Assembly: GCF_058153355.1 (NCBI RefSeq)
Contig: NZ_CM177019.1
Direction: 5' to 3' (one strand)
Length of the DNA: 64,000 bases
In this document: in pieces, positions 1 to 63,371 of the stretch
Numbering within the stretch: the stretch's first letter is position 1
Layout of the letters: each line of letters starts with the position of its first letter
The notes under the pieces: model-generated
Seen by the model: the letters and a program-made list of their open reading frames with translations, nothing else
Told to the model about the DNA's origin: nothing
Databases searched by the model: none
Position numbers and translations under genes: made by a program

Positions 1-63
1 ATAGTCCTTCGCTCTCCGGCCACTTGCAGGCTATGATAGTTCTCCAGCCACAGGAGAACGTTA

Positions 64-957
64 ATGAAACCGCAGGTTTATCACGTCGATGCTTTTACCG
101 CTCAACCGTTTCGCGGCAATTCTGCCGGTGTTGTTTTTCCCGCCGATAAACTTAGCGAAGCGCAAATGCAGCTTATCGCCCGCGAATTAGGTCATTCGGA
201 AACTGCTTTTCTGCTGCACTGCGACGACAGCGATGTACACGTTCGATACTTTACGCCAACGGTTGAAGTGCCAATTTGCGGTCACGCAACGGTGGCTGCG
301 CACTATGTGCGTTCAAAGGTATTAGGTTTGGGAAATTGCACGGTCTGGCAAACGTCGCTGGCAGGAAAACATCGCGTGACTATCGAAAAGCACAACGATG
401 ATTATCGTATTTCGCTGGAACAAGGTACGCCGGGCTTTGAGCCACCGCTGGAAGGTGAAACACGTGCGGCGATTATCAACGCATTGCATCTTACCGAAGA
501 CAATATTCTGCCGGGTTTGCCAATCCAGGTGGCAACCACAGGACACTCAAAAGTGATGATCCCGTTGAAACCAGAAGTGGATATCGACGCCCTTTCGCCT
601 GACCTTGCTGCGCTGACCGCTATTAGTAAACAGATTGGCTGCAATGGTTTTTTCCCGTTCCAGATCCGCCCTGGCAAAAATGAAACCGATGGTCATATGT
701 TCTCACCAGCGATAGGTATTGTGGAAGATCCGGTGACCGGGAATGCCAATGGCCCGATGGGCGCATGGTTGGTACATCACAACTTACTACCCCATGATGG
801 CAGCGTGTTGCGTGTTAAAGGCCATCAGGGGCGCGCACTGGGGCGTGACGGCGTGATTGATGTGACGGTGACAATTCGAGATAACCAACCGGAGAAAGTT
901 ACCATTTCCGGCACGGCGGTGATTCTTTTCCATGCTGAATGGGCCATTGATTTTTGA
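64..957 (+). CDS. yddE: PhzF-family isomerase-like protein YddE
   Basis: 297-aa ORF from track; PhzF/DapF-like fold signature (CGHAT motif); conserved position next to nhoA as in K-12. Confidence 0.85.
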   Translation: MKPQVYHVDAFTAQPFRGNSAGVVFPADKLSEAQMQLIARELGHSETAFLLHCDDSDVHVRYFTPTVEVPICGHATVAAHYVRSKVLGLGNCTVWQTSLAGKHRVTIEKHNDDYRISLEQGTPGFEPPLEGETRAAIINALHLTEDNILPGLPIQVATTGHSKVMIPLKPEVDIDALSPDLAALTAISKQIGCNGFFPFQIRPGKNETDGHMFSPAIGIVEDPVTGNANGPMGAWLVHHNLLPHDGSVLRVKGHQGRALGRDGVIDVTVTIRDNQPEKVTISGTAVILFHAEWAIDF

Positions 958-964
958 TACCGTT

Positions 965-1040
965 GCCTGATGCGCTTCGCTTATCAGGCCTACAACCGGG
1001 CTAATGTGGGCCGGTTGTAGGCGTTTACGCCGCATCCGGC
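965..1040. repeat. REP/BIME element (two inverted palindromic units gcctgatgcg...cgcatccggc)
   Basis: Seen in sequence: GCCTGATGCG and its inverse GCCGCATCCGGC flanking a short spacer in the convergent yddE/nhoA intergenic region. Confidence 0.6.
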
Positions 1041-1052
1041 CCCTGGCACAAA

Positions 1053-1898
1053 CTATTTCCCCGCCTCCGGATGCGTATCAAACGCCGCCATCACCAACGC
1101 CAGTTCATCCACAGTAAAGCCATGCTTTGCGTCATCTACGCCCAGACCAAACTGCTCCTGCATCACGGCATATAACGACGCCACATCCGGTAGATTTCGC
1201 TGCTCCACTGCATGTCCATTTTCATAATGGGTGAAATGAAAATTGGTCAGTGTCAGTTTGCCACCGTCCGGCAAATGGCGGCACATCAGCAAATGATGGC
1301 GAAAATGCGATTGCGGCCAGTGCGCAGACCAGAAATTGCCCATTATATAATCGCTTTGTTGCTGCTCGCAGAGATCAAAACGGTACATCGACTGCCAGTG
1401 CTGATGATGATTAAACTGCAACACCCAATCATCACCCTCCTGTAACAACCGATACTCTCCGTGTGGCGTGATCTGCACGAGATCGGGAACTAAACGAATC
1501 GGCGCGGTTAGCGTCTGTCCACCGAAACCGACATCAGCAATCCATTTTTCCCCTTCCAGTTCCACCAACAACAAACGATGGGTGCGCGGCGGTAATGCTG
1601 GCGGATTAGATAACACTACGCGCCCTAACAGACTGCGTACCTGAAAACCCAGCTCGCGTAACACCCGCTCAAACACGCCATTCTGCTCAAAGCAGTAACC
1701 ACCACGCCGGGCGAGCACCAATTTCTCTTCCAGCGATTGATCATCAAGCTGCATTTCTCTCGGCAGTAAAACATCGAGATTTTCAAATGGAATGGTGCAA
1801 TTGTGTTTCAGGTGTAATGCGCGCAGCGTTTCGATATTGACCGCAGCCGCTCCCGACCAGTTAATGCGGGTAAAATAGTGATTCAGAATGGGCGTCAT
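1053..1898 (-). CDS. nhoA: N-hydroxyarylamine O-acetyltransferase
   Basis: 281-aa ORF, arylamine N-acetyltransferase family (catalytic Cys in GGYCFEQN context); expected length and neighbourhood. Confidence 0.9.
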   Translation of the reverse strand: MTPILNHYFTRINWSGAAAVNIETLRALHLKHNCTIPFENLDVLLPREMQLDDQSLEEKLVLARRGGYCFEQNGVFERVLRELGFQVRSLLGRVVLSNPPALPPRTHRLLLVELEGEKWIADVGFGGQTLTAPIRLVPDLVQITPHGEYRLLQEGDDWVLQFNHHQHWQSMYRFDLCEQQQSDYIMGNFWSAHWPQSHFRHHLLMCRHLPDGGKLTLTNFHFTHYENGHAVEQRNLPDVASLYAVMQEQFGLGVDDAKHGFTVDELALVMAAFDTHPEAGK

Positions 1899-2072
1899 CA
1901 GGCGTTTCCGTTTGTGGTTTTCTCAATTTATAACCTGGAATAGACGCCGCACCGGCTATTTTGTGCGATCGCGGACATGCATCACGTTCGCAAATCGCCA
2001 ATCCCGTTAATTTCGTTGCTTATTGCGTTACGAGCTACGCTTTTAAAACACCCTTCATAGCGAGGCGATATC

Positions 2073-2642
2073 GTGAGCCGATTCATCCCTGTCGAATTAC
2101 ACCATGCCAGCCGTCTGTTAAATCATGGCCCAACTGTCTTGATCACCAGTTTCGATGAGCAATCCCAGCGGCGTAACATTATGGCAGCAGCTTGGTCAAT
2201 GCCGGTGGAGTTTGAACCGCCACACGTGGCAATTGTGGTAGATAAATCGACATGGACCAGGGACTTGATTGAACGTAATGGTAAGTTTGGCATCGTTATC
2301 CCGGGTGTTGCAGCAACTAACTGGACGTGGGCGGTGGGAAGTGTCTCGGGTCGAGAAGAAGATAAATTTAATTGCTATGGCATTCCGGTTGTGAAAGGTC
2401 CGGTGCTTGGATTGCCGCTGGTTGAAGAGAAATGTCTGGCATGGATGGAGTGTCGATTGCTACCAGCGACTTCTGCGCAAGAAAAATACGATACGCTATT
2501 TGGCGAAGTGGTATCGGCAGCGGCAGACGCACGAGTATTTGTCGAAGGCCGCTGGCAGTTTGATGATGACAAACTCAATACACTACATCATTTAGGTGCT
2601 GGCACGTTTGTTACCAGCGGGAAGCGAGTTACGGCAGGTTAA
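2073..2642 (+). CDS. yddH: flavin reductase-like domain protein YddH
   Basis: 189-aa ORF; flavin reductase-like fold; K-12 synteny. Confidence 0.8.
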   Translation: MSRFIPVELHHASRLLNHGPTVLITSFDEQSQRRNIMAAAWSMPVEFEPPHVAIVVDKSTWTRDLIERNGKFGIVIPGVAATNWTWAVGSVSGREEDKFNCYGIPVVKGPVLGLPLVEEKCLAWMECRLLPATSAQEKYDTLFGEVVSAAADARVFVEGRWQFDDDKLNTLHHLGAGTFVTSGKRVTAG

Positions 2643-2645
2643 GCA

Positions 2646-2873
2646 TTACATGCTGTAACCAGGTTTCTTTATCAGCGTCTCCATTTGGGGCGCAATTTCG
2701 GCGTCCCAGACAGCTTGCCATGATTCTGGTTGAATCTGCTGTAGAGCAATGCTTATCGAACTGTCTTTACTGTTCAGATGGCGAATAATAACGTCGGTAA
2801 TATCTGCAGCAAGTGCTGCTTTTTGTTGTTCGTCCAGTTCACGTGGAAAACATTTAATGTCTATGTGCGGCAT
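2646..2873 (-). CDS. pptA: tautomerase PptA (4-oxalocrotonate tautomerase family)
   Basis: ORF-track entry 2646..2912 trimmed to internal Met giving MPHIDIKCF... (catalytic Pro1 after Met removal), 75 aa; CAT start codon on minus strand at 2871-2873. Confidence 0.85.
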
Positions 2874-3177
2874 GATTGTGCTCCTTTTGAAAGATGTCAG
2901 TAAAATTAACACACGTTGTGAATGTTATGTGTCCGGTGATGCTTTTTTACGGCAATAATGCCTACTTGAATTTGTACAGATTTGTACTACACCCTTTTAA
3001 ATAAAGCGCCAACAAAAAACGTCAACTTGCAGAATATATTCTTCGCCAACATGCCATTAAGAAACATCAAGTTCCCGGCTTGCCAATTTATTAACGCCCA
3101 TTATAGTTATTCTTGCCCTCACAAAAATTTTCATCCGTAATTACCCCCAATAAAAGTCCATTCTGGAGACGCTTAAG

Positions 3178-5154
3178 ATGCAGCTTAATCATATTGTTAA
3201 AAGTCTGCTAATAACGGGATTATTCACCACCAGTTCTTTGCCACTCCTCGCGGCGGAAGCCCCTAAAGACGCCACCGCAGCCACGCAACAAGCAAACAAT
3301 TTACTCTACAACCAGTTGCCGTTTTCTGATAACACTGACTTTACTGATGCCCATAAAGGTTTTGTTGCCCCTATCCCTCAAGACGTGATTAAGGGCGAAA
3401 AAGGAAATGTTATCTGGGATCCACAACAATACGCTTTTATTAAAGAAGGTGATAAAGCCCCTGATACGGTGAATCCAAGTTTATGGCGTCAGGCGCAACT
3501 GATAAATATCAGCGGATTATTTGAAGTGACTGAAGGTGTCTATCAGATTCGTAACCTCGATTTATCAAATATGACCATCATTGAAGGCAAAGAGGGTATT
3601 ACCATCGTTGATCCCCTTGTTTCAGCAGAAAGAGCCAAAGTGGGTATGGATCTCTATTACAAAAATCGCGACAAAAAACCGGTAGTAGCGGTTATCTACA
3701 CACACAGTCATGTCGATCACTACGGTGGTGTTCGCGGCGTAATTGATGAAGCTGACGTTAAATCAGGCAAAGTTAAAATCTACGCGCCAGCCGGATTTTT
3801 GGAGGAAGCCGTTTCCGAAAATATTATGGCTGGCAATGTGATGAGCCGACGAGCCAGTTATATGTATGGCAACTTATTGAAACCTGATGTTAAAGGCCAG
3901 GTTGGCGCGGGACTGGGAACAACCACTTCAGCAGGAACGGTCACGTTGATTGCTCCTACTAACTACATCACCAAAACCGGACAAAAAGAAACTATTGACG
4001 GGTTGACCTATGATTTCTTGATGGCGCCAGGCTCTGAAGCACCTTCTGAAATGCTGTGGTTTATTGAAGAAAAGAAACTGATCGAAACCGCCGAAGATGT
4101 TACGCATACCCTTCATAACACCTATTCGCTGCGTGGGGCTAAAATTCGCCAACCGCTGCCGTGGTCAAAATATATTAACGAAGCTCTCAATTTATGGGGA
4201 GATAAAGCCGAGATTATTCTCGCTCAACATCACTGGCCAACCTGGGGCAACGATAACGTGGTCAAACTGCTTAAAAGCCAGCGTGATTTGTATCGTTACA
4301 TCAATGATCAAACTCTGCGTATGGCAAATCAAGGGATGACCCGTGATGAAATTGCCGCAAACTTTAAACTGCCCTCTTCACTGGCTAATACCTGGGCGAA
4401 TCGCGGCTATTACGGTTCGGTAAGTCATGACGTGAAAGCAACTTACGTGCTTTATCTCGGCTGGTTTGATGGTAACCCCGCGACGCTTGATGAACTGCCA
4501 CCAGAAGAAGGCGCAAAAAAATTCGTCGAGTATATGGGCGGTGCTGATGCCATTTTACAGAAAGCCAAACAAGATTATGACCAGGGTAATTTCCGCTGGG
4601 TTGCTCAGGTTGTAAGTAAGGTGGTGTTTGCGGATCCAAACAACCAGGCAGCGAGAAATCTGGAAGCTGATGCGCTTGAGCAGTTAGGCTATCAGGCTGA
4701 ATCTGGGCCGTGGCGTAATTTTTATCTCACAGGCGCACAGGAATTGCGTAATGGCGTACAAAAATTACCAACACCAAATACTGCCAGCCCTGACACCGTG
4801 CGTGCAATGACGCCAGAGATGTTCTTTGATTATCTTGCCGTCCATATTAATGGTGAGAAAGCGGCAGATGCCAAAGCTGTACTGAATTTCGATTTTGGTG
4901 AAGATGGCGGCACCTATAAAGTGGAGCTTGAAAATGGTGTTCTCAATCATACCGATGGTGTAAAGGCTTCGGATGCTGATGCCACTATCACTCTGTCTCG
5001 TGATGTATTGAACAAAATTGTACTAAAAGAAGAGACGCTGAAAGAAGCCACGGACAAAGGAGATGTCAAAATTACTGGCAATGCGGAAAAACTCAACGAG
5101 CTGTTAGGTTATATGGATAATTTTGAATTTTGGTTCAATATAGTGACACCATAA
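3178..5154 (+). CDS. secreted alkyl/aryl-sulfatase homologue (metallo-beta-lactamase fold, YjcS/SdsA1-like); accessory gene absent from K-12 at this locus
   Basis: 658 aa; N-terminal signal peptide (MQLNHIVKSLLITGLFTTSSLPLLAAEAP); metallo-beta-lactamase metal motif THSHVDHYGG; overall length and C-terminal region consistent with alkyl sulfatase dimerisation and SCP2-like domains; GGAGA RBS upstream. Confidence 0.8.
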   Translation: MQLNHIVKSLLITGLFTTSSLPLLAAEAPKDATAATQQANNLLYNQLPFSDNTDFTDAHKGFVAPIPQDVIKGEKGNVIWDPQQYAFIKEGDKAPDTVNPSLWRQAQLINISGLFEVTEGVYQIRNLDLSNMTIIEGKEGITIVDPLVSAERAKVGMDLYYKNRDKKPVVAVIYTHSHVDHYGGVRGVIDEADVKSGKVKIYAPAGFLEEAVSENIMAGNVMSRRASYMYGNLLKPDVKGQVGAGLGTTTSAGTVTLIAPTNYITKTGQKETIDGLTYDFLMAPGSEAPSEMLWFIEEKKLIETAEDVTHTLHNTYSLRGAKIRQPLPWSKYINEALNLWGDKAEIILAQHHWPTWGNDNVVKLLKSQRDLYRYINDQTLRMANQGMTRDEIAANFKLPSSLANTWANRGYYGSVSHDVKATYVLYLGWFDGNPATLDELPPEEGAKKFVEYMGGADAILQKAKQDYDQGNFRWVAQVVSKVVFADPNNQAARNLEADALEQLGYQAESGPWRNFYLTGAQELRNGVQKLPTPNTASPDTVRAMTPEMFFDYLAVHINGEKAADAKAVLNFDFGEDGGTYKVELENGVLNHTDGVKASDADATITLSRDVLNKIVLKEETLKEATDKGDVKITGNAEKLNELLGYMDNFEFWFNIVTP

Positions 5155-5165
5155 ATTTACTGTAT

Positions 5166-5192
5166 ACCGGGCAGGTATCCTGCCCTTTTTTG
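5166..5192 (+). terminator. intrinsic terminator after sulfatase gene
   Basis: GGGCAGG-tatc-CTGCCC hairpin followed by TTTTTT, 12 nt downstream of the stop codon. Confidence 0.65.
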
Positions 5193-5200
5193 GTTAAAAA

Positions 5201-6298
5201 ATGGCTGAACAAAGAAAAACGCATCACTCGTGGAAAACCCGCCGCGATATGGTTATTCGCGGCATGACGATTAGTTTGCCATGGTTTGCTTTTATCAATG
5301 TCAGTTTTGCATTGATGATTTTGCTGCGCCGTGTTCTGTTTAATGACCTTACTCCTCCCTGGTTAAATGAAAAAAGCCTTATACATTCTATTGATATATC
5401 TGCAACGGGTATTCTGCTGATTTGCAGTGGTTTACTACTCATCCCTCGGCAAAAAACATTACCTATCCAGGTGCTATTAGTTGCCCTGAGCCTGCTATGG
5501 TCATGGTGTAGTTATCACTTTATTGCGTACTGGACGCTGCAGTTTGCTTATCCACTATGTGTATTATTAATGCTTAGTGGCGTTGTCGCACTTTATTTCC
5601 ATACCCCATCATTGCTCGCATTTGTCATTCCCTTATGGTTCACCACTCCAATAGCGAGCCTTATGCTTAATCAACAGGTTAATATTCATTTTGCTGTTAT
5701 CTGGTGTATTTTTTCACTGGCGTTATATGGTGGGCGACTCATTTTGTTACGTTGGTTTGAAGAAGCATGGGAACAAAACAGCTATAACAACCAGTTAATT
5801 AATCGCCTTGATGCATTAGCACATCGTGATCCTTTAACTGGGATAGCAAACCGACGAGCAATGAACAGTATCTTACACGACGCGATAGATAACGGCGGGT
5901 CATTTGCTCTTATTATGCTGGATGTCGATTTTTTTAAACGCTACAACGACACCTACGGGCATCCTGCTGGGGATCGTTGTCTGATACAAGTTGCCGACGC
6001 TCTACAGCATTCAACTCGCCAGTCGGAGGATGTTGTTGTCCGTTATGGTGGCGAAGAGTTTGCCATCATACTTTTTAATGCAACATTGCCGGAAGCAGAG
6101 ACGGTAGCAGCCAGAGTGAAGCAAGAACTTAAACTGGCAGCTATCCCGCATCAGGCATCTGCTGTTAATGCATTCGTTACGGTTAGTCAGGGGATTACCT
6201 GTTCAGCTCCCGCAAAAACGGCTGAACAAATTATTTCAGATGCCGACGCCGCGTTATACCGGGCGAAAGAAAGTGGGCGAAATCGATGGGAAAAATAA
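5201..6298 (+). CDS. membrane-anchored diguanylate cyclase (GGDEF domain, GGEEF active site); accessory, not one of the K-12 DGCs
   Basis: 365-aa ORF; N-terminal about 200 aa strongly hydrophobic (multiple predicted TM helices); C-terminal GGDEF domain with RYGGEEF motif, DxLTG-like HRDPLTGIANRR upstream; true start may be an internal Met (codon 17 or 22). Confidence 0.8.
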   Translation: MAEQRKTHHSWKTRRDMVIRGMTISLPWFAFINVSFALMILLRRVLFNDLTPPWLNEKSLIHSIDISATGILLICSGLLLIPRQKTLPIQVLLVALSLLWSWCSYHFIAYWTLQFAYPLCVLLMLSGVVALYFHTPSLLAFVIPLWFTTPIASLMLNQQVNIHFAVIWCIFSLALYGGRLILLRWFEEAWEQNSYNNQLINRLDALAHRDPLTGIANRRAMNSILHDAIDNGGSFALIMLDVDFFKRYNDTYGHPAGDRCLIQVADALQHSTRQSEDVVVRYGGEEFAIILFNATLPEAETVAARVKQELKLAAIPHQASAVNAFVTVSQGITCSAPAKTAEQIISDADAALYRAKESGRNRWEK

Positions 6299-6916
6299 TT
6301 AAATGATTCCATTCCTCTTTAGTATCCCTTTTAGCTTTGGTATCTGACATACAGCATCAGCGATCGCACTGATATTCGTGGCATTATCCTGAAACCATTC
6401 ATGCCCAGGCCCCCATGTGCGCATAGTGCAAAGATAACAGTCCACCAGCGTTAGTTGCTCACCAAACGCATAAGGTTCAGCGGTCAATTGTGAATTCAGC
6501 CAGATATAAAGCGATTTGCGATATTCAATAACATTCTTCTTCAACTGTTCAGGTGCGTCAGGAGCCCAACGCTCAGGGTAATCGGCGAAGGTAAACGTTG
6601 GATAGACATTAGCGACCAGCCAGACCAATAACCGTTGAAACTGCTGACGTTCGGCGTGCCCAATCGGTGGCGAAAAATTCGGGTGGCGGTCGAGAACCAT
6701 CAATGCAATCGCCGCTGTCTCCGTCATAATCTCGCCATTTTCCAGCACCATTGTCGGAATCTGGCACAACGGGTTCAGGTTTTTCAGTATCTCGCGAGAA
6801 GTTCCCTCGCGATCAAACCCACTGACATCAACGAACTGATAAGGAATATCAGCCAGTGATAGCATCAGCTCACTGATTGTAGAGCCCCATCCGGGTACGC
6901 CATACACCTTAATCAT
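6299..6916 (-). CDS. yncG: glutathione S-transferase homologue YncG
   Basis: 205-aa ORF, GST fold; adjacent to ansP as in K-12. Confidence 0.85.
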   Translation of the reverse strand: MIKVYGVPGWGSTISELMLSLADIPYQFVDVSGFDREGTSREILKNLNPLCQIPTMVLENGEIMTETAAIALMVLDRHPNFSPPIGHAERQQFQRLLVWLVANVYPTFTFADYPERWAPDAPEQLKKNVIEYRKSLYIWLNSQLTAEPYAFGEQLTLVDCYLCTMRTWGPGHEWFQDNATNISAIADAVCQIPKLKGILKRNGII

Positions 6917-7182
6917 ATGCCCCTCACAATCTTTTAAAGATTAAGTGTAGGACAGTACACAGGTTAACCAGCAAAAGGATTTGTCATTTTTTCGTCAGTT
7001 GTATTATTCCCCTTCAGGATTGTAAGGGGATGTTTTGCATCGTTTATCGATAACGGGTAGGATGCTGCGCCGATAGTTTTATACCCATAAAGAATAATGG
7101 TGATAACTATCATCGCCAGGATGAATAAACATTGTTCATGGCAACTTATATGACTTTTTCATTAAAGCAATCAGGGAGAGCA

Positions 7183-8682
7183 ATGAGTAAACACGACACC
7201 GACACTTCAGATCAACACGCCGCGAAACGTCGCTGGCTTAATGCCCACGAAGAGGGGTATCACAAAGCGATGGGCAATCGCCAGGTACAGATGATCGCCA
7301 TTGGCGGCGCGATTGGCACCGGCTTGTTTTTAGGTGCAGGAGCCCGACTGCAAATGGCGGGGCCAGCACTGGCACTGGTCTATTTAATCTGCGGCCTGTT
7401 TTCATTTTTTATTCTGCGTGCATTGGGTGAGCTGGTGCTACACCGGCCTTCCAGTGGCAGTTTTGTCTCTTATGCCCGTGAGTTTTTAGGAGAGAAAGCC
7501 GCTTACGTTGCAGGCTGGATGTACTTCATCAACTGGGCGATGACGGGGATTGTCGATATTACCGCCGTCGCGCTGTATATGCATTACTGGGGTGCGTTTG
7601 GCGGCGTGCCGCAGTGGGTCTTTGCGCTCGCTGCGCTGACCATCGTTGGCACCATGAATATGATCGGTGTGAAATGGTTTGCGGAGATGGAGTTCTGGTT
7701 TGCGCTTATTAAAGTGCTCGCCATTGTGACCTTTTTGGTCGTGGGTACAGTGTTCCTCGGTAGTGGTCAGCCGCTGGATGGCAACACCACTGGCTTTCAT
7801 TTAATCACCGATAATGGCGGCTTCTTCCCCCATGGTTTGCTACCTGCGCTGGTATTGATTCAGGGCGTAGTGTTTGCTTTTGCCTCCATTGAAATGGTGG
7901 GTACAGCTGCCGGAGAATGTAAAGATCCTCAGACCATGGTGCCTAAAGCCATTAACAGTGTGATTTGGCGTATTGGCCTGTTTTACGTCGGCTCCGTGGT
8001 GTTGCTGGTTATGTTATTGCCGTGGAGTGCGTATCAGGCTGGGCAAAGTCCGTTTGTGACGTTCTTTTCCAAACTGGGCGTGCCGTACATCGGCAGCATT
8101 ATGAACATTGTGGTGCTGACCGCTGCGCTCTCCAGCCTGAACTCAGGTCTGTACTGCACCGGACGTATTCTGCGCTCGATGGCGATGGGCGGTTCCGCAC
8201 CGAGTTTTATGGCGAAAATGAGCCGTCAGCATGTGCCGTATGCCGGGATCCTGGCGACGCTGGTCGTTTATGTTGTTGGCGTATTCCTTAACTATCTGGT
8301 GCCGTCGCGCGTATTTGAGATTGTGTTGAACTTCGCGTCGCTGGGAATCATCGCTTCATGGGCGTTTATCATCGTGTGCCAGATGCGCCTGCGTAAAGCG
8401 ATTAAAGAAGGCAAAGCAGCGGATGTCAGTTTTAAACTGCCTGGCGCGCCCTTCACTTCCTGGCTGACATTACTGTTTTTACTGAGTGTCCTTGTGCTGA
8501 TGGCGTTTGATTACCCGAACGGGACTTATACCATTGCGGCGCTGCCGATTATCGGTATTCTGCTGGTTATAGGCTGGTTTGGTGTGCGCAAACGCGTTGC
8601 TGAAATTCACAGCACTGCGCCAGTCGTCGAGGAAGATGAAGAACAACAGGAAATTGTGTTTAAGCCAGAGACGGCGAGTTAA
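7183..8682 (+). CDS. ansP: L-asparagine permease (APC family amino-acid transporter)
   Basis: ORF-track 7132..8682 trimmed to Met with GGGAGAG RBS (MSKHDTDTS...), 499 aa; 12-TM APC transporter sequence. Confidence 0.9.
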   Translation: MSKHDTDTSDQHAAKRRWLNAHEEGYHKAMGNRQVQMIAIGGAIGTGLFLGAGARLQMAGPALALVYLICGLFSFFILRALGELVLHRPSSGSFVSYAREFLGEKAAYVAGWMYFINWAMTGIVDITAVALYMHYWGAFGGVPQWVFALAALTIVGTMNMIGVKWFAEMEFWFALIKVLAIVTFLVVGTVFLGSGQPLDGNTTGFHLITDNGGFFPHGLLPALVLIQGVVFAFASIEMVGTAAGECKDPQTMVPKAINSVIWRIGLFYVGSVVLLVMLLPWSAYQAGQSPFVTFFSKLGVPYIGSIMNIVVLTAALSSLNSGLYCTGRILRSMAMGGSAPSFMAKMSRQHVPYAGILATLVVYVVGVFLNYLVPSRVFEIVLNFASLGIIASWAFIIVCQMRLRKAIKEGKAADVSFKLPGAPFTSWLTLLFLLSVLVLMAFDYPNGTYTIAALPIIGILLVIGWFGVRKRVAEIHSTAPVVEEDEEQQEIVFKPETAS

Positions 8683-8690
8683 TTGCAAAA

Positions 8691-8718
8691 TTGCCCGGCT
8701 ATGTGCCGGGCAAATTCA
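8691..8718. terminator. bidirectional hairpin terminator between convergent ansP and yncE
   Basis: GCCCGGC-tatgt-GCCGGGC stem-loop flanked by A/T runs. Confidence 0.55.
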
Positions 8719-8794
8719 GATTAGAAACGAGGGTGCCGGATGCGGCGTGATAAAAGTCAGGCAAGTCTCTCAGTTTTCACCCTCGCCATATCTA

Positions 8795-9856
8795 TTACAA
8801 CGCAATACGAATCACATCGTCCGGCTGAGTAGCTTCCTGCTGTTTAGTGGATTTTTGTTTCACACTGACATACAGCGTTTTGCCATCGGCAGACAGCGCC
8901 AGGCTGTTCGGATGGGTCGGCGTATCGAACGTTTTCACCACTTTATAGCTTTTCGCGTCAATCACACTGACTTTACCTGCCTGACGATGCGTTACGTAGG
9001 CTTCATTACGCGCTGGGTTAAACAGCACAGCCAGTGATTCCGGTGCCGCAACCTTCGCCAGAATATTGCCATTACGGGTATCGACCACTAGCACTTCTGC
9101 CGCTTTAGAATCGGTGATAAATGCACGCTGCCTGGCGGTATCGAGGCTGATGTTGATAAAGAAGTGCTCTTTGCCATCATCCAGCAGCTTTTTACGGCTG
9201 AGGATTTTATTGTCGGCGGTGTCGATGGTAATCAATTCACCATCGGCATTAGTGGTGTAAAGACGTTTGCCTTTGCTATCCAGCGCCAGACCGGTACTCA
9301 TTTTACCGGTGTTCTGGATGGCGGTTTTCAGTTTGATATTCTCGCCATCAACGACCCAAATCACGCTCTCTTTACCAATACCACTGATGTAAACGGTGTT
9401 CGTGGCATCATCAGCTACCAGCTCACGCGGTTGCAGCGGGCGCACCTCTTCCGTGCGCTTACGATCATCCAGCACCAGACGGCCTTTCACTTCGCCCGTT
9501 TTGGCATCTATCGCCGTGACCGCGCTGTTTACGGTGTTACCAAACCACAACGTCTGAGTCGTGTTATTGATGGTGGCACCAAACGGCTTGAGATCGTTAT
9601 GGATCGCCTGCGTCACTTCCAGAGTGACCGGATCAAGACGATAAACCACGCCACCTTTATCCAGTTTGCGGCTTTGCGAAGTGGCGAGCCACAGCGCGTT
9701 TTCTTGCTGGCTATAAGCCATTTCGTAGGCACCTTTACCTACCGCTTTACGCAGCATTTCTTCTGCGGCCTGCGTACTGAATGATGAAGCAACAAGCAAT
9801 GAACCTAACAGTAATGAACCACGCAGGCGCGATGAAAACAGATGACGTAAATGCAT
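8795..9856 (-). CDS. yncE: periplasmic PQQ-like beta-propeller protein YncE
   Basis: 353 aa with signal peptide; repeated beta-propeller blades; K-12 synteny. Confidence 0.9.
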   Translation of the reverse strand: MHLRHLFSSRLRGSLLLGSLLVASSFSTQAAEEMLRKAVGKGAYEMAYSQQENALWLATSQSRKLDKGGVVYRLDPVTLEVTQAIHNDLKPFGATINNTTQTLWFGNTVNSAVTAIDAKTGEVKGRLVLDDRKRTEEVRPLQPRELVADDATNTVYISGIGKESVIWVVDGENIKLKTAIQNTGKMSTGLALDSKGKRLYTTNADGELITIDTADNKILSRKKLLDDGKEHFFINISLDTARQRAFITDSKAAEVLVVDTRNGNILAKVAAPESLAVLFNPARNEAYVTHRQAGKVSVIDAKSYKVVKTFDTPTHPNSLALSADGKTLYVSVKQKSTKQQEATQPDDVIRIAL

Positions 9857-9940
9857 GACGACTCCCTTTGATGAACCGATATTTTTGCTGCTTCACAATG
9901 CTTCGCTAAGCGTAATCATCGTTACGCTCTTGTTATAAAT

Positions 9941-9959
9941 GGGAATGGTAATCATTATT
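9941..9959. promoter_or_regulatory. predicted Fur box in yncE/yncD divergent promoter region
   Basis: gggaatggtaatcattatt matches the 19-bp Fur consensus GATAATGATAATCATTATC at 15 of 19 positions; yncE is a reported Fur-regulated gene and yncD is a TonB-dependent receptor. Confidence 0.6.
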
Positions 9960-10097
9960 TTCTCAAATGTGGAGCATTTCTTGCCGTTACGACTACAATT
10001 TTCTCAATTACTTAACGTATTGTGCCGTTTCATTTTCCATAAATTTACAATTTCATTACCATGACGGCGTTTTCCCATTCTTAACCTGGCTTTTTTC

Positions 10098-57872: not shown

Positions 57873-60800
57873 TTAGAACGTTTTCTTGAAGTTCAGCATC
57901 ACGCCTTTATCGCTGATACCATCCTCTTTCCAGTGGTAAGCATCCAGATTCAGCGAACTTTCTTTGCTGCTGTACTTCACGCCGACGCTTGCCAGACTGT
58001 TGATGCCGCCGCCCTTTTGCCCATCATCGACATTAAAGTGCTGGCTGCCTGCGCCTGCCAGGCTTGCCGTGCGCTGGCTCTTCGTGTAGCTCAGGTTCGG
58101 GCCGCCTTCCAGCGTGGCGTTCGCGCTCCAGCCGTCTTTGCCTGCGTAGTCCAGCTTCAGCCCGACGATACTGTCCACCGCCGTTTCGCTGCCGCTGTTC
58201 ATGCTCAGGTTAAAGTCTCCGGCATTACGCTCCTGATAACCGCCTTCCAGCGTGTGACGCAGTTTCACACCCGCATATGGCGTGATTTTCAGCCCTTCGC
58301 GCGGTTCAAAGGTTTTCGCCCCTTCGCTGCGGAACTCCAGGTACTGCTGTTTCACGTTGGTATCCGCCGTTTTGCTAACGTCGCCGTAAGCCACCGAACG
58401 GCTGCTGTCCAGTTGGTGAATATCGTAACGCAGCGCGTTATTCCAGCTCATACCGTTGTCAAAGGACATCTGATGCTTCAGGCCAAAGAACTGGCTGTAG
58501 CCGCCTGTAACACCATTATCACCCGCTTTCTGCGCACCATCGCCGTCCAGACGGGCGATACCGTACTCCAGGCTCATGGTCTGGTTTTCGCTCAGGTCGA
58601 GGGTTTTGCGCAGCGCCAGCATGTCGTACTCGGTATTATTCCCCAGCTCTGCACGCGGATCGCCTTTCGCCACCACGTTAAATGCCAGACCGTTGCCCAT
58701 CTTCGGTGCTGCGTCCGCCAACATGCTGAAGCGGTTACTCAACACGCGGGCCTCACGAAATACCGTGGTAGCCTGGCTCCCGCTGACTTGTTTCAGCGCG
58801 CTGTTCAGCTCTGCAGTGGTGCCAACGTTCAGACTGGTATACAGCTCGTTGTTGGTGTAACCCGCATCCAGCGCTTTTGCCACGTCATTCACTGAGGCAT
58901 CCGTCGCCACATCGGTGTAGGCGTTTTTGCTCATGGTCACGTCAACGTTGCCGCTGGCGTCGGTACTGCCTGTCGCCTGCCAGACAACAGATGTCGAAGT
59001 GATCGCTTGCGCATCAGTCAGGTTGCTGCCTTGCACCACATCATCAAAGCTGACGGTTTTGTCCGCCGTTCCCGCCGCAAAATCGGTGTTGATCTCCACG
59101 CCGTTCATACTGGCGTTATTGAGCATCAGCTTACCGGCGCTACCGTCGGCGTTCGTCCCCACCACGTAACCATTGAGGTTGTTCATGCCATCGTTGCGGC
59201 TAACGGAAGAAGAATGGGTGCCGTCGTATGGCGTAATGGTGGGTTCTTCCGGCGCGGTAAAGTCGACATAGTGCACTTCCGTACCGTCTCCGCCTTCGCC
59301 ACTACCCTCCATCGCCGTGCCAGATTGTTTAATTAATCCGGAACCATTCACGCTGTCGTCAATATAAACAGTGCCGTTGTTAACAATATGACCATTGCTC
59401 CCGAGCTTGCTGAAAGCCCAGGAGTTATTGGCGTAGATATTAATCGTACCGTTGTTTTCAACCACACCATCCGCTTTCGCGTCCGATGCTAATTGCATTC
59501 CAACCATACCTGTATGCGAAGTGCCTTCGCTACCAATATTGATAGTGCCATTGTTGACCATTTTTGCGCTGCCGTGCGCATTCATGGCGATGGTATTATT
59601 TTTATCAATATTGATAGTGCCATCGTTAATTGCCCGGCTACCGGCGTTATTATTTGGCGTCGTAACCTGGCCGTTAATCACACCTGTCGTACCGTTATAC
59701 AACGTATGCCCATTACCGCTGGTAGCGATATCAGCATCACCATTCACTGTACCCCAGTTGTTGAAATGCCCAGCCCAAAGTCCGTTATCAAGAAGATCGA
59801 CAACACCACCGACCAGGTTATTAAAGGTCGCGTTTTTATCAACCGAACCACTGTGAACCGTTCCTGCGTTATTGAAAGTGGCTGCGGCAGAAAAATTCAC
59901 TTTATTGACCGTTCCATCCGCTTCGTTATTCATCACGGCAGAAGCTGAGGCCCCTTTCCAGGCTGTTACCGTCCCGGCGTTATAAAACGTACTGGCCCAT
60001 TGTTCAACAGTGTTCATGGTGCCGGAATTGTTGATAACAGAACCCGCAACGGTTGTACCTACCAACCCGGTCACCGTACCTTCGTTAGTGAACACGCCGC
60101 CATCCACAGAAACGGTTTTTGTCGTGCCCTTATTGGTGTATTCCCCACCGGTTGCGATATCAACCTCATTAATACTGCCCGTGGTTTCATTGACCAAACG
60201 GCCAAAGTCAGCCACGGTGACAGGCCCCCCGGTAACCGTACCCGCGTTGGTTACCAGGGTTTCGGCGGTTGCCGTGATATCAGTCGTACCGCCATATGAA
60301 GACAGGTTAAGCGTTTCCCCGTCAGCCGAAATAATGTCACCATTTCTCCAGCTTAATGAAACAAACCCGTCAGTCGGGTTATAGGCGTTATTGTCCTGGC
60401 ATTTCCCAAAAGTACAGATGGTTCCGTAATTAACAATAGTCCCGCTGCCATCGTTATAGAACGCCTGCCCGTTTTCGGCATTGATATTGATGATGCCAGT
60501 CTGATCATTAATCGCAGTGGCACCATTGTAAACAGCCATGCCGACCAATTTATTTGGCCCCAGCGTATCATCATCATTTTCATTTACTTCCAGATTTATA
60601 GTTCCCTGGTTAATAATAATGTTACCTGGCTTCATCGCGGCCATACCGGCACCGGAATTATAGAGTGTTATTTCACCACCCTGCTGGTTAATGGCGGTAG
60701 AATTAACGCTGGCACCAGAACTGTCTGTACCCACAGCCATCCCGACAGCATAATCTTTGGCGCTGTCATGAGCGATATTGGACGCCAGACTGGAAGTATC

Positions 60801-63371
60801 GTTTTCATCAACCCATAATGCGTCAATGAAAATCTTACCCATATTGTCAATGGTTGAATTATTGGAGGCCAGCATGCCAACACTCCCCCGGCCGTACATT
60901 TGGATCTCACCGGCAGTATTATTTGAAGCGGTGCCATTGTTGCCTGCCGTCATCCCCGTCAGACTAATGACTTGATTATTAAAAATTAAAGGGTCACTCA
61001 AACCTTGAGCGTTCAGACTATTGAAAATACGTCCCTGCGCGAGTACCTTACTGGTGATGGCACTGTTATTAACAACTCGACCACCATAGACGCTCAAATA
61101 CGCAGAACTAGCAGAGTCTGATGTATTCCCCTCTACGCCGTAGATAGAAATCGTTACGTTGTTATTATTTACAGCTAGCGACTCTTCACCAGTAGCCCTG
61201 GCAAAGCCAATATTACCCAGTTCTACATCACCATTATTTATCATCTGCGAACCGGAATTCACCAGTACAACCTGTGATGTGTCACTATTATAATGATCAA
61301 ATGTATTTATATCTTTTAGGATAAAAGTGGCGTTGCGGCCAAGTTCTAAATGGGCTCGGTTATTCAGTTGAATGATATCGCCTAATCCAAGCGGAAAAAC
61401 ACCACTGATTGTTGAATCCCCATTTAGATACAGAGTAGAGTGCCCATCGATTTTGATAACAGGCGTATCGCCATAACCATTACGTTTTAAAGCAGGTGTG
61501 GAGCCATCCTGTAGAGTATTTTCTTCGCCAGCTAAATGGATACCACCATTAATTTCGACGGTATTACCGTCACCCGACACAACCAGACCATTAATATTTT
61601 CCTGGCTGCCATCCATTTCATTATAGATACGAGAAGTGACTTCACTGTCAGCAACAACGGTAAGATTGCCATTTAATACGATATTATTGTCGTGTCCCTG
61701 CACCTGAATGCCAACAGAAGGGGTAAAAAAGTCATTTATTGAATGCTCTCCGGCCTGATTTTTATCCACCAGAATATTACCGGTAATTTCAACTTCATTG
61801 CCATCACCGGCTACATTTACCCCTGTCGCAACACTGCCGGTCACATTAAGCTCATTTGTCGCCAGCGTCATGGCGTTATTATTTCCAGAGACATCCAGAC
61901 CGGTTGAATAATCCCCTACATCCACACGGCCAGCCAGAGAAATCAGACCATCATCTCCGATGATGCGAATCCCGGTACTGAAATTATCAGCAATGATGTC
62001 CCCCACATTGATAAGGGTAGAATGATTACCCTCAATCAGAATCCCTGTCGCATTGGCCTCTGAACTACCATTACTGACGGAAATATCCCCCCTGTTAATG
62101 AACGTCGACGCATCACCACTGAGAGAAACACCCTGCGAATTTTCATCCACGACCGTTATATTTCCTTTGTTGCTGACGATCGCGCCATTACCCTCAACAT
62201 CAATACCCCGTGCAGCATTGCTAACGTATAAATCCCCTTCCTGTATAACCGTCGCATTATTACCAACGATTTTGCTGCCCGTTGAATTTTGCCCATCAAC
62301 CGTCATATGTCCTTTATTATCGGTCCTGACATCATTACCGCTAATAACGGCCCCTATTCCGCCGTTATTGACAGTGGAGTCGCCAGTGTTATTTAAGATT
62401 GTACGATCGCCATTGACGATAACCGCCGTGCCAGCATCGACCACCGTCTGACCGTTATTATTGATGGTTATATTATCGCCGGTCAGGATACCGACCACCG
62501 AACCTTCACCGACAGCCTCTGTTTTACCCTCGTTTGTCAGCGCAATGTTGTTACCATTAATCATCATCACCGTGCCGCCATTCAGGGCCGTGTTACCGCC
62601 CTGGTCAGTGATAATCGCATCATTAACGGTAATTATTCTGCCCGTTGTTCCATCAGACACGACACTGGCTAACTGTGTGACGTGGAGTTTACCTTCGTCA
62701 TCGTAGCGCCATTCCATATCACCTGTGGTACTCACACCACTAAACATGGCGGTATGAGTCTCTTCATGGTTTTCCCACTCAGTCACAATGGTTTTTCGGC
62801 CATCTTTTGCCGTCAGCGTGTAGCTACCATCTTCATTTTGGGTATAAGTGAACGTCGCCCCGCGAATCTTCAGGGTTTGCGCGTCCTCGTCCCATGTCAC
62901 ATTGTTATCAAAGACAACGGGTTCTGTTCTCGGGGGGTCAACATCATCACCGCTATTGTCGGGTGGAGTAACATTACCGCCGTTATCTGGCTTTACAGGT
63001 ATACCTGAATCTTCATCACTGGGAACGGGTAGCGGTAGAGGGCCATTATCATCTGGCGGTATGGGCTGGGGAAAAGAAGAGTGAGCAGAATGATCATTGT
63101 CATGAGACAATTCAATCACTGCGAGTGTTGCCAGTACCGCCGTGGCACCTAATGCCAGTAACGAGCTGAAACCATTATTTGTAACAACAGCACATTTTTC
63201 TGGCACTGTTTTCAACTTCGTTGACGGTCGGGCGTGCCCTTCTGACTGACATGTCATTTGAGAGCTTCTGCGCATACTGTCTGCACTCTCGCCTTCTGTT
63301 ATTTCCGCCCCCCAGCTTTGGCCACTTAACGCTATAGCGATACACGCTGATAATAACGTTTTCTTTTGCAT
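57873..63371 (-). CDS. ydbA: large AIDA-I/Ag43-type autotransporter adhesin YdbA, apparently intact
   Basis: 1832-aa uninterrupted ORF; signal peptide MQKKTLLSACIAIALSGQSWGA; long Gly/Asn/Thr-rich passenger with degenerate beta-helix repeats; C-terminal beta-barrel ending ...LNFKKTF; no IS sequence inside. Confidence 0.85.
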   Translation of the reverse strand: MQKKTLLSACIAIALSGQSWGAEITEGESADSMRRSSQMTCQSEGHARPSTKLKTVPEKCAVVTNNGFSSLLALGATAVLATLAVIELSHDNDHSAHSSFPQPIPPDDNGPLPLPVPSDEDSGIPVKPDNGGNVTPPDNSGDDVDPPRTEPVVFDNNVTWDEDAQTLKIRGATFTYTQNEDGSYTLTAKDGRKTIVTEWENHEETHTAMFSGVSTTGDMEWRYDDEGKLHVTQLASVVSDGTTGRIITVNDAIITDQGGNTALNGGTVMMINGNNIALTNEGKTEAVGEGSVVGILTGDNITINNNGQTVVDAGTAVIVNGDRTILNNTGDSTVNNGGIGAVISGNDVRTDNKGHMTVDGQNSTGSKIVGNNATVIQEGDLYVSNAARGIDVEGNGAIVSNKGNITVVDENSQGVSLSGDASTFINRGDISVSNGSSEANATGILIEGNHSTLINVGDIIADNFSTGIRIIGDDGLISLAGRVDVGDYSTGLDVSGNNNAMTLATNELNVTGSVATGVNVAGDGNEVEITGNILVDKNQAGEHSINDFFTPSVGIQVQGHDNNIVLNGNLTVVADSEVTSRIYNEMDGSQENINGLVVSGDGNTVEINGGIHLAGEENTLQDGSTPALKRNGYGDTPVIKIDGHSTLYLNGDSTISGVFPLGLGDIIQLNNRAHLELGRNATFILKDINTFDHYNSDTSQVVLVNSGSQMINNGDVELGNIGFARATGEESLAVNNNNVTISIYGVEGNTSDSASSAYLSVYGGRVVNNSAITSKVLAQGRIFNSLNAQGLSDPLIFNNQVISLTGMTAGNNGTASNNTAGEIQMYGRGSVGMLASNNSTIDNMGKIFIDALWVDENDTSSLASNIAHDSAKDYAVGMAVGTDSSGASVNSTAINQQGGEITLYNSGAGMAAMKPGNIIINQGTINLEVNENDDDTLGPNKLVGMAVYNGATAINDQTGIININAENGQAFYNDGSGTIVNYGTICTFGKCQDNNAYNPTDGFVSLSWRNGDIISADGETLNLSSYGGTTDITATAETLVTNAGTVTGGPVTVADFGRLVNETTGSINEVDIATGGEYTNKGTTKTVSVDGGVFTNEGTVTGLVGTTVAGSVINNSGTMNTVEQWASTFYNAGTVTAWKGASASAVMNNEADGTVNKVNFSAAATFNNAGTVHSGSVDKNATFNNLVGGVVDLLDNGLWAGHFNNWGTVNGDADIATSGNGHTLYNGTTGVINGQVTTPNNNAGSRAINDGTINIDKNNTIAMNAHGSAKMVNNGTINIGSEGTSHTGMVGMQLASDAKADGVVENNGTINIYANNSWAFSKLGSNGHIVNNGTVYIDDSVNGSGLIKQSGTAMEGSGEGGDGTEVHYVDFTAPEEPTITPYDGTHSSSVSRNDGMNNLNGYVVGTNADGSAGKLMLNNASMNGVEINTDFAAGTADKTVSFDDVVQGSNLTDAQAITSTSVVWQATGSTDASGNVDVTMSKNAYTDVATDASVNDVAKALDAGYTNNELYTSLNVGTTAELNSALKQVSGSQATTVFREARVLSNRFSMLADAAPKMGNGLAFNVVAKGDPRAELGNNTEYDMLALRKTLDLSENQTMSLEYGIARLDGDGAQKAGDNGVTGGYSQFFGLKHQMSFDNGMSWNNALRYDIHQLDSSRSVAYGDVSKTADTNVKQQYLEFRSEGAKTFEPREGLKITPYAGVKLRHTLEGGYQERNAGDFNLSMNSGSETAVDSIVGLKLDYAGKDGWSANATLEGGPNLSYTKSQRTASLAGAGSQHFNVDDGQKGGGINSLASVGVKYSSKESSLNLDAYHWKEDGISDKGVMLNFKKTF

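Follow-up and report, generated by a model that had tools for sequence, protein, structure and literature searches.

A predicted alkyl sulfatase and the predicted diguanylate cyclase DgcY are encoded by an apparently ancestral gene pair of Escherichia

Identification of the dgcY locus

We analyzed a stretch of 64,000 nucleotides (nt) from contig NZ_CM177019.1 of the NCBI RefSeq assembly GCF_058153355.1, hereafter the window. Sequence comparisons indicate that two co-oriented genes between pptA and yncG correspond to the dgcY locus already known from the Escherichia coli pangenome (strains SMS-3-5 and CE10). The first gene (3178..5154, + strand) encodes a protein of 658 amino acids (aa) predicted to be a periplasmic type III alkyl sulfatase with a metallo-beta-lactamase (MBL) fold. 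The second, dgcY (5201..6298, + strand), encodes a predicted diguanylate cyclase of 365 aa. The explanation that best accounts for the observations overall, and that we consider likely, is that this dgcY locus is an old gene pair at its site, that it would be transcribed as an operon by read-through, and that it may connect exposure to surfactants with signaling by cyclic di-GMP (c-di-GMP).

At exactly the site occupied in the window, SMS-3-5 carries pptA, an alkyl/aryl-sulfatase gene, a gene for a GGDEF protein, and yncG. The cyclases of the two strains share the same MASE5-GGDEF architecture and each protein differs by seven substitutions, i.e., 651 of 658 residues are identical between the sulfatases (99%) and 342 of 349 between the cyclases (98%). 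A preliminary description of this DNA had treated the pair as an accessory module; given the published locus and this degree of identity, it is not an unrecognized one. The cyclase gene of SMS-3-5 lies at 1,723,321–1,724,370 of that genome (WP_000236738.1). The SalmoNet2 paper (bioRxiv 10.1101/2021.12.20.473597) states that yreP, the Salmonella name of dgcY, was initially reported jointly with the alkyl sulfatase gene EcSMS35_1714 from E. coli strains SMS-3-5 and CE10, and it credits Povolotsky and Hengge (J Bacteriol 2016, 198:111) for the description. None of the database records for the cyclase uses the name DgcY. Among complete E. coli genomes, none matched the 3.4-kb segment containing the pair at >98.4%.

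A predicted exported alkyl sulfatase

Pfam searches show that the 658-aa open reading frame (ORF) contains a Lactamase_B domain (E = 9e-17), an Alkyl_sulf_dimr domain (E = 1e-62), and an SCP2-like Alkyl_sulf_C domain (E = 4e-44), the latter two covering 139 of 139 and 125 of 125 profile positions, respectively. The zinc motif HxHxDH is intact: it reads HSHVDH (residues 176–181, nt 3703–3720) within the sequence THSHVDHYGG (residues 175–184, nt 3700–3729). The N-terminus, MQLNHIVKSLLITGLFTTSSLPLLAAEAP, has a basic n-region, a hydrophobic core, and the sequence LLA/AEA, and judged by eye it resembles a Sec signal spanning approximately residues 1–25; crystallized homologues begin at residues 26–29. 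End-to-end matches in the PDB were 7tl5 (1184 bits), PSdsA (4nur, 1039 bits), and YjcS (4pdx, 705 bits), as well as Pisa1 (2yhe) and SdsA1 (2cfu). The first gene is thus predicted to encode an SdsA1/SdsAP/YjcS-family alkyl sulfatase that depends on zinc and is exported through the Sec pathway. The preliminary description had recognized an MBL-fold alkyl sulfatase here, an identification upheld by the solved homologues and by the Pfam domains, Alkyl_sulf_dimr and Alkyl_sulf_C both among them.

SdsA1 of Pseudomonas aeruginosa, PSdsA/SdsAP of Pseudomonas sp., Pisa1, and YjcS belong to the same class as the window protein. Common to these type III alkyl sulfatases and the window sulfatase are the MBL catalytic, dimerization, and SCP2-like C-terminal domains, the HxHxDH motif, the length, and the export signal (predicted here). 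Among them, the window protein is far nearer to 7tl5 and PSdsA than to YjcS. Since it shares only 49% identity with YjcS of K-12, it is a paralogue rather than an orthologue of the product of this core gene. In K-12, yjcS lies between alsK and ytcA-mdtNOP and has no GGDEF neighbor. In NCBIfam, we found no model specific to either the sulfatase or the cyclase, the matches being confined to the GGDEF domain and to sub-threshold hits.

A predicted membrane diguanylate cyclase

The 365-aa ORF contains a MASE5 domain (E = 5e-45; nt 5273–5818, + strand) followed by a GGDEF domain (E = 2e-48; nt 5819–6286, + strand), as assigned by Pfam. Hydropathy and an AlphaFold model agree on six membrane helices in MASE5, connected by loops of just 3–15 residues. 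The N-terminal tail is basic and should therefore face the cytoplasm. The active site is intact: an alignment shows that the sequence RYGGEEF (nt 6041–6061), with the GGEEF motif at nt 6047–6061 (+ strand), is invariant in 17 homologues. The inhibitory RxxD site, five residues before GGEEF, is absent; the position reads RQSED (RxxxD) and the family consensus in the alignment is RxPED. RxxD marks cyclases subject to product inhibition and does not define the family. On this basis, we predict the second gene to encode DgcY, a diguanylate cyclase whose only sensor would be the six-helix, membrane-embedded MASE5 domain. This matches the earlier reading of the gene as encoding a polytopic membrane GGDEF protein, for which a search for MASE domains had been suggested. 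A Foldseek comparison of the AlphaFold model of MASE5 (predicted local distance difference test score, pLDDT, of 71) with the PDB returned no match below E = 0.7, so the predicted structure offers no hint of the mechanism.

RefSeq places the start of the cyclase at the ATG at 5249, giving a protein of 349 aa. The N-terminal extension upstream of this position (W and R before MV) is shared by different genera, including cases in which translation would start at TTG. Because the extension is conserved as protein, we place the start at 5201 rather than 5249.

We considered DgcX as an identity for the cyclase and rejected it. DgcX (enteroaggregative E. coli, O104:H4) is likewise a membrane diguanylate cyclase that belongs to the E. 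coli pangenome but not to K-12, and it travels beside lambdoid prophages, as does the Salmonella version of the sulfatase–cyclase pair. However, DgcX has an eight-helix N-terminal domain in common with YcdT and YeaI, an intact RxxD site, and a position at attB or beside prophages, whereas the window cyclase has the six-helix MASE5, lacks a canonical RxxD, and in Escherichia occupies a fixed site outside prophages.

Predicted promoter, palindrome, and internal hairpin

The AT-rich intergenic region upstream of the sulfatase gene (2874..3177, + strand; 37% guanine plus cytosine, GC) carries its predicted promoter. A promoter scan identified a sigma-70-like site with a –35 element TTGCCA (3080–3085), a 16-nt spacer, and a –10 element TATAGT (3102–3107), and this –35/–10 block is kept in divergent Escherichia lineages and in Enterobacter, Lelliottia, and Citrobacter. 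A perfect 12-bp palindrome, AGAATATATTCT, occupies positions 3031..3042, approximately 38 bp ahead of the –35 element, and is kept in Escherichia lineages whose neighboring intergenic bases have diverged. We did not find the palindrome upstream of the sulfatase gene in other genera, and it matches no operator consensus that we know of. Its conservation makes it a candidate regulator-binding site or operator.

The spacer between the two co-oriented genes is 46 nt long and includes an intrinsic-terminator-like hairpin followed by six T residues (5169..5191, + strand), identified by sequence scan and folding energy. The hairpin (GGGCAGG-TAT-CCTGCCC; –13.5 kcal/mol) has a 7-bp stem with six G-C pairs and a 3-nt loop; the structure begins 14 nt past the sulfatase stop codon and its T-tract ends 10 nt ahead of the cyclase ATG. 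We compared 23 distinct intergenic sequences of co-oriented pairs from Escherichia and from Enterobacter-, Lelliottia-, and Citrobacter-type loci. All 23 have a hairpin at the same position, with differing sequence, and the T-tract is interrupted in many of these homologous hairpins (e.g., TTTCCTG, TTTTCTG). The promoter scan found no sigma-70-like site in 5100–5260, and an Rfam scan of 2600–7200 returned zero matches, neither a riboswitch nor a known leader.

From this arrangement, we infer that the pair forms an operon with a leaky internal terminator. A single promoter (–35 at 3080, –10 at 3102) would drive both genes and the hairpin at 5169–5191 would act as a partial terminator. Only transcripts that read through it would then reach dgcY, giving abundant sulfatase but a small amount of cyclase.

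History of the pptA–yncG site

Homology with K-12 ends at position 2962 of the window and resumes at 6301. Between these points K-12 has 6.1 kb carrying yncH, rhsE', ydcD, yncO, yncI', and ydcC. The preliminary description correctly stated that Rhs and transposase remnants stand at this site in K-12, from which the sulfatase–dgcY pair is absent; its left boundary of 2913 is corrected to 2963 by the comparison.

The pair (at least 80% of 2913–6298) is present in 438 of 5426 complete E. coli genomes (8%). Eighty-six of these 438 have the direct dgcY/yncG junction seen in the window and the remainder resemble strain MS 69-1, in which an Rhs element (ISAs1', a pentapeptide immunity gene, an RHS core, and ISAs1') lies between dgcY and yncG. 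This element looks like an intermediate between the window arrangement and the rhsE remnant of K-12. Remnants of the sulfatase gene persist in other strains: 98203 retains window positions 2913–3247, including the first 70 nt of the gene, joined to ISAs1 ydcC, and IAI39 retains 2913–3502, after which come an IS3 element and a large deletion. In MS 69-1 (locus L176, 17462–24849) the 4.2-kb RHS core appears intact, the immunity gene is of the pentapeptide-repeat type, both flanking ISAs1 copies are defective, and the yncG gene beside the Rhs element is frameshifted.

Outside E. coli, four divergent Escherichia lineages, with DgcY proteins 94, 83, 80, and 77% identical to that of the window, all have adjacent sulfatase and dgcY genes. 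The full order nhoA-yddH-pptA-sulfatase-dgcY was observed in three of them (94, 80, and 77%); the lineage with 83% identity is represented by a short contig that covers the pair only and not its flanks. In these lineages nhoA, yddH, and pptA are 92–98% identical where DgcY is 77–94% identical. Sulfatase orthologues are also recorded for E. albertii, E. fergusonii, E. marmotae, E. ruysiae, and E. whittamii. In another enterobacterial genus, a DgcY of 65% identity is encoded between yddH and yncG, with no sulfatase gene present.

These comparisons suggest that the pair is the ancestral occupant of the pptA–yncG interval in the genus Escherichia. Because divergent Escherichia share the gene order and ISAs1/Rhs strains keep truncated sulfatase stubs, K-12 appears to be the derived state. 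The view of the pair as an insertion relative to K-12 is thus reversed, since it appears ancestral in the genus and displaced in K-12 by Rhs/ISAs1; the suggestion that the two genes are co-inherited is upheld. We propose that the pair is old at this site, that an Rhs element with ISAs1 (H-repeat) copies would have entered between dgcY and yncG, and that ISAs1-associated deletions would then have stripped the pair from K-12 and most other E. coli.

Sulfatase and cyclase genes in other genera

We surveyed the cyclase side by scanning metagenome contigs with a MASE5-only profile, combined with contig look-ups, and the sulfatase side by sampling 11 contexts outside Escherichia. The sulfatase gene lies beside that of a MASE5 cyclase in at least six genomic contexts and three orientations. 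It is directly upstream of the cyclase gene and co-oriented with it in Escherichia, in Enterobacter/Lelliottia-type loci between tynA and feaB, and at a third locus in Citrobacter sp. Q6884. The two genes are divergent in Salmonella enterica subsp. indica and at locus L147; within Salmonella, this divergent arrangement occurs on the chromosome as well as in a lambdoid prophage. In Hafnia-like loci and on a Pantoea agglomerans megaplasmid, they are convergent and the sulfatase gene is three genes from that of the cyclase, the intervening genes encoding a FadL/TodX-like channel, YicS, and a 263-aa outer-membrane-like protein.

In Salmonella Enteritidis and Sandiego, the sulfatase and MASE5 cyclase genes are found in the nin region of a lambdoid prophage. 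The Salmonella prophage pair (L178, 4474–7980; L179; L186, 2475–5980) is divergent cargo of a Gifsy-like lambdoid prophage, placed between the replication genes/DUF977 and DUF1367/NinG/antiterminator Q. It differs from the E. coli version in being divergent, with a shared regulatory region, and prophage-borne. The SalmoNet2 paper reports that the Salmonella pair is enriched in typhoidal and extraintestinal serovars (bioRxiv 10.1101/2021.12.20.473597).

The sulfatase also has GGDEF neighbors of other kinds. A membrane-sensor GGDEF gene adjoins it divergently in Pantoea sp. S18, and in Buttiauxella the remains of a degraded MASE5 gene are found nearby. At two loci (L180, 4659–5630; L182, 2654–5637), sulfatases of the same subfamily (84–86% identical) have neighbors that are not of the MASE5 type. 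These are a GAF-GGDEF gene in Serratia fonticola and, in Yokenella regensburgei, one GGDEF gene plus one GGDEF-EAL gene. Altogether, a GGDEF or MASE5 gene lies within approximately four genes of the sulfatase gene in seven of the 11 contexts outside Escherichia. With approximately 20 GGDEF genes per genome, a rough expectation by chance would be a few percent for each context. No association with GGDEF genes was seen for the sulfatases of Cupriavidus and Sinorhizobium (74% identical) or for the plasmid copy of Enterobacter hormaechei.

In Pantoea, Hafnia-like loci, and Buttiauxella, the sulfatase gene is found with genes for FadL/TodX-type outer-membrane channels, which handle hydrophobic substrates. 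From its wider surroundings in these genera, the E. coli pair looks like the remnant of a larger cluster concerned with the envelope or hydrophobic substrates. Outside Escherichia, a mechanosensitive channel of the MscS family (~540 aa) is a recurrent neighbor of the MASE5 cyclase (L099, 7153–8775; L194, 10616–11869; L196, 9029–10636; L145, L152, L153, L159, L162, and L163), often alongside the FadL/TodX-like channel, YicS, and the 263-aa outer-membrane-like protein.

In Enterobacter-type loci the sulfatase gene behaves as a presence/absence cassette of ~2.1 kb, composed of promoter, gene, and hairpin (L120, 3766–5905, compared with L116, 5853–5908), between the tynA terminator and the cyclase gene. 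Where the sulfatase is missing, the allele has the sequence CTTGCTTATAGTTA, similar in appearance to a collapsed sulfatase promoter.

Gene layout and flanking regions

ORFs in positions 1–10000 of the window occur in the order yddE, nhoA (–), yddH, pptA (–), sulfatase (+), dgcY (+), yncG (–), ansP, and yncE (–), which is the same as the RefSeq annotation at orthologous loci. The left conserved flank is pptA (tautomerase; 2646..2873, – strand), as defined by its ORF, the RefSeq annotation of the orthologous locus, and the K-12 breakpoint; the right conserved flank is yncG (glutathione S-transferase family; 6299..6916, – strand). The junctions of the pair are the pptA upstream region and the yncG stop codon. 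The dgcY and yncG genes are convergent and their stop codons abut at 6298/6299 with zero spacer; consequently, neither gene has its own terminator and each transcript would run antisense into the other.

The sulfatase and cyclase genes have GC contents of 44.9 and 44.0%, compared with 48.8% for the whole window and 50–52% for the flanking genes, and their GC contents at third codon positions are 0.42 and 0.39, compared with 0.46–0.60 in the flanks. The AT-richness noted in the preliminary description is thus real but modest, and the neighboring core gene pptA has a base composition as low as that of the pair. Consistent with the absence of flanking mobility genes also noted there, positions 1–10000 contain no mobility gene, and no integrase gene, transfer RNA (tRNA) gene, or direct repeats flank the pair. 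The left flank yddE-nhoA-yddH-pptA (1–2962) is 92.1% identical to K-12 and the right flank yncG-ansP-yncE (6301–10000) is 96.4% identical; the alleles of this strain around the pptA–yncG site are unusually divergent. Towards the far end of the window, there is a very long ORF of 1832 aa (57873–63371, – strand).

Discussion

The domain architectures, intact catalytic motifs, predicted export signal, topology, synteny, and conserved neighborhood of the sulfatase–dgcY pair can be read directly from the sequence; its co-transcription, substrate, sensed signal, and output are inferred. In the function that we propose, long-chain alkyl sulfate esters, i.e., surfactants resembling sodium dodecyl sulfate (SDS), would reach the periplasm, where the sulfatase would split them into sulfate and fatty alcohol. 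The amphiphile or its alcohol product would partition into the inner membrane. There it would be sensed by MASE5, which is almost without periplasmic loops, and this would switch on the GGEEF domain. Levels of c-di-GMP would rise as a result, driving protective aggregation or matrix production. We put some form of functional coupling between the sulfatase and the cyclase, as suggested by their genomic association, at about an even chance; the specific mechanism, in which MASE5 would sense the alkyl sulfate or alcohol and cause aggregation through c-di-GMP, is more doubtful and draws on analogy.

A precedent for such a response is the SDS-induced aggregation of P. aeruginosa, which depends on SiaA/SiaD and c-di-GMP. 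SiaABCD ties surfactant exposure to a diguanylate cyclase and aggregation, as proposed for the window pair, and P. aeruginosa degrades SDS with a sulfatase of the SdsA1 type. However, SiaD is a soluble protein controlled by a phosphatase/kinase partner switch; it is neither a MASE5 membrane protein nor encoded beside the sulfatase. The window cyclase matches the NCBIfam model of SiaD through its GGDEF domain only (153 bits against a cut-off of 290). We therefore regard SiaABCD as an analogous system and not as a homologue of the pair.

The preliminary description had raised a possible link between sulfate esters and c-di-GMP. This remains plausible since the association of sulfatase and GGDEF genes recurs over genera, loci, and orientations, and what speaks most for a functional link, rather than one of inheritance alone, is that unrelated GGDEF proteins adjoin the same sulfatase. 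A possible alternative, to which we give well under an even chance, is that the two genes are neighbors only by descent or joint mobilization, as cargo (e.g., a prophage moron) with unrelated roles: the sulfatase would scavenge sulfur or carbon from sulfate esters and DgcY would answer an unrelated membrane signal. Physical co-transfer could spread the adjacency, given that the Salmonella pair resides in the nin region of a lambdoid prophage. Moreover, each gene often occurs without the other, a terminator lies between them, and the MscS-type channel is equally recurrent as a neighbor of the cyclase. Yet the adjacency outlasts changes of locus and orientation, being co-oriented, divergent, or convergent with three genes between, and the co-transfer of a single ancestral pair cannot explain the GGDEF genes with other sensors in S. 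fonticola and Yokenella. The frequency of GGDEF or MASE5 genes around the sulfatase outside Escherichia, relative to the few percent expected in each context, also argues against it. The link is nevertheless not obligatory.

Two further alternatives concern transcription and history. The preliminary description held that the genes are probably separately transcribed, and dgcY could have a promoter of its own, independent of the sulfatase gene, with the hairpin merely ending the sulfatase message. The hairpin and its T-tract do form a clean terminator, as that description had noted, and in Enterobacter-type alleles without a sulfatase, expression of the cyclase gene must come from the ~95 bp that separate it from the tynA terminator, such that the cyclase can be expressed without the sulfatase promoter. 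We nevertheless consider separate transcription improbable. Only 10 nt lie between the T-tract and the conserved start codon in Escherichia, which leaves no room for a promoter and makes read-through likelier; the transcript from any promoter farther upstream would have to cross the same hairpin; no sigma-70-like site was found in 5100–5260; and the interrupted T-tracts of many homologues are as expected for leaky terminators. As for history, the pair could be a low-GC islet recently acquired by this strain at a point where K-12 has retained an older Rhs region. Its GC content of 44–45% compared with ~50% in flanking genes, its presence in just 8% of complete E. coli genomes, and the related pairs on prophages and plasmids of other genera would fit such an origin, which we nonetheless judge highly improbable. 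Divergent Escherichia have the same gene order at the same site, with divergence in step with the flanks, and the site is not empty in sister lineages, three of which show the full order and the fourth the pair on a short contig. Furthermore, a DgcY orthologue of 65% identity occupies the same site in another genus, Rhs/ISAs1 strains retain stubs of the sulfatase gene, and the pair has no flanking integrase gene, repeats, or tRNA gene.

Several observations weigh against our preferred explanation of an ancestral, read-through dgcY operon with a surfactant-related function. The MASE5 model is of medium confidence, matches no solved fold, and shows nothing indicative of a ligand site. SDS is a synthetic compound. 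Many Enterobacter-type loci carry the cyclase without the sulfatase, as does the 65% relative of DgcY, and a GGDEF neighbor of the sulfatase is absent in K. aerogenes, Rahnella victoriana, a C. portucalensis plasmid, Sinorhizobium, and Cupriavidus. If the pair moves as a unit, its contexts are not phylogenetically independent. With respect to transcription, the hairpin with its six T residues is a respectable terminator that could isolate the two genes, and dgcY may have a weak or non-consensus promoter. Finally, the assignment of the name dgcY rests on a secondary citation of Povolotsky and Hengge (2016).

More broadly, we tentatively suggest that an SdsAP-type periplasmic alkyl sulfatase and a membrane diguanylate cyclase could constitute a conserved, surfactant-responsive c-di-GMP module of the Enterobacterales. 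The cyclase would usually be a MASE5 protein (DgcY/YreP), with other GGDEF proteins recruited independently in Serratia and Yokenella, and MASE5 would detect, within the membrane, either the alkyl sulfate or the fatty alcohol released from it. E. coli would have this module in its minimal form, to which a larger cluster elsewhere would add the FadL-like channel, YicS, the 263-aa outer-membrane-like protein, and the MscS-type channel. In Salmonella, the module would be prophage-carried and enriched in invasive serovars.

The window pair is an ordinary allele of a gene pair already catalogued in the c-di-GMP pangenome of E. coli, and the difference between the window and K-12 would reflect loss in K-12, not gain in this strain. 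The recurrent neighborhood with one particular alkyl sulfatase and with channels for hydrophobic substrates provides a concrete hypothesis for DgcY/YreP, namely that alkyl sulfates or long-chain alcohols may be the signal. Given the enrichment of the Salmonella orthologues in typhoidal and extraintestinal serovars, as reported in the SalmoNet2 paper, this signal could matter for host adaptation.

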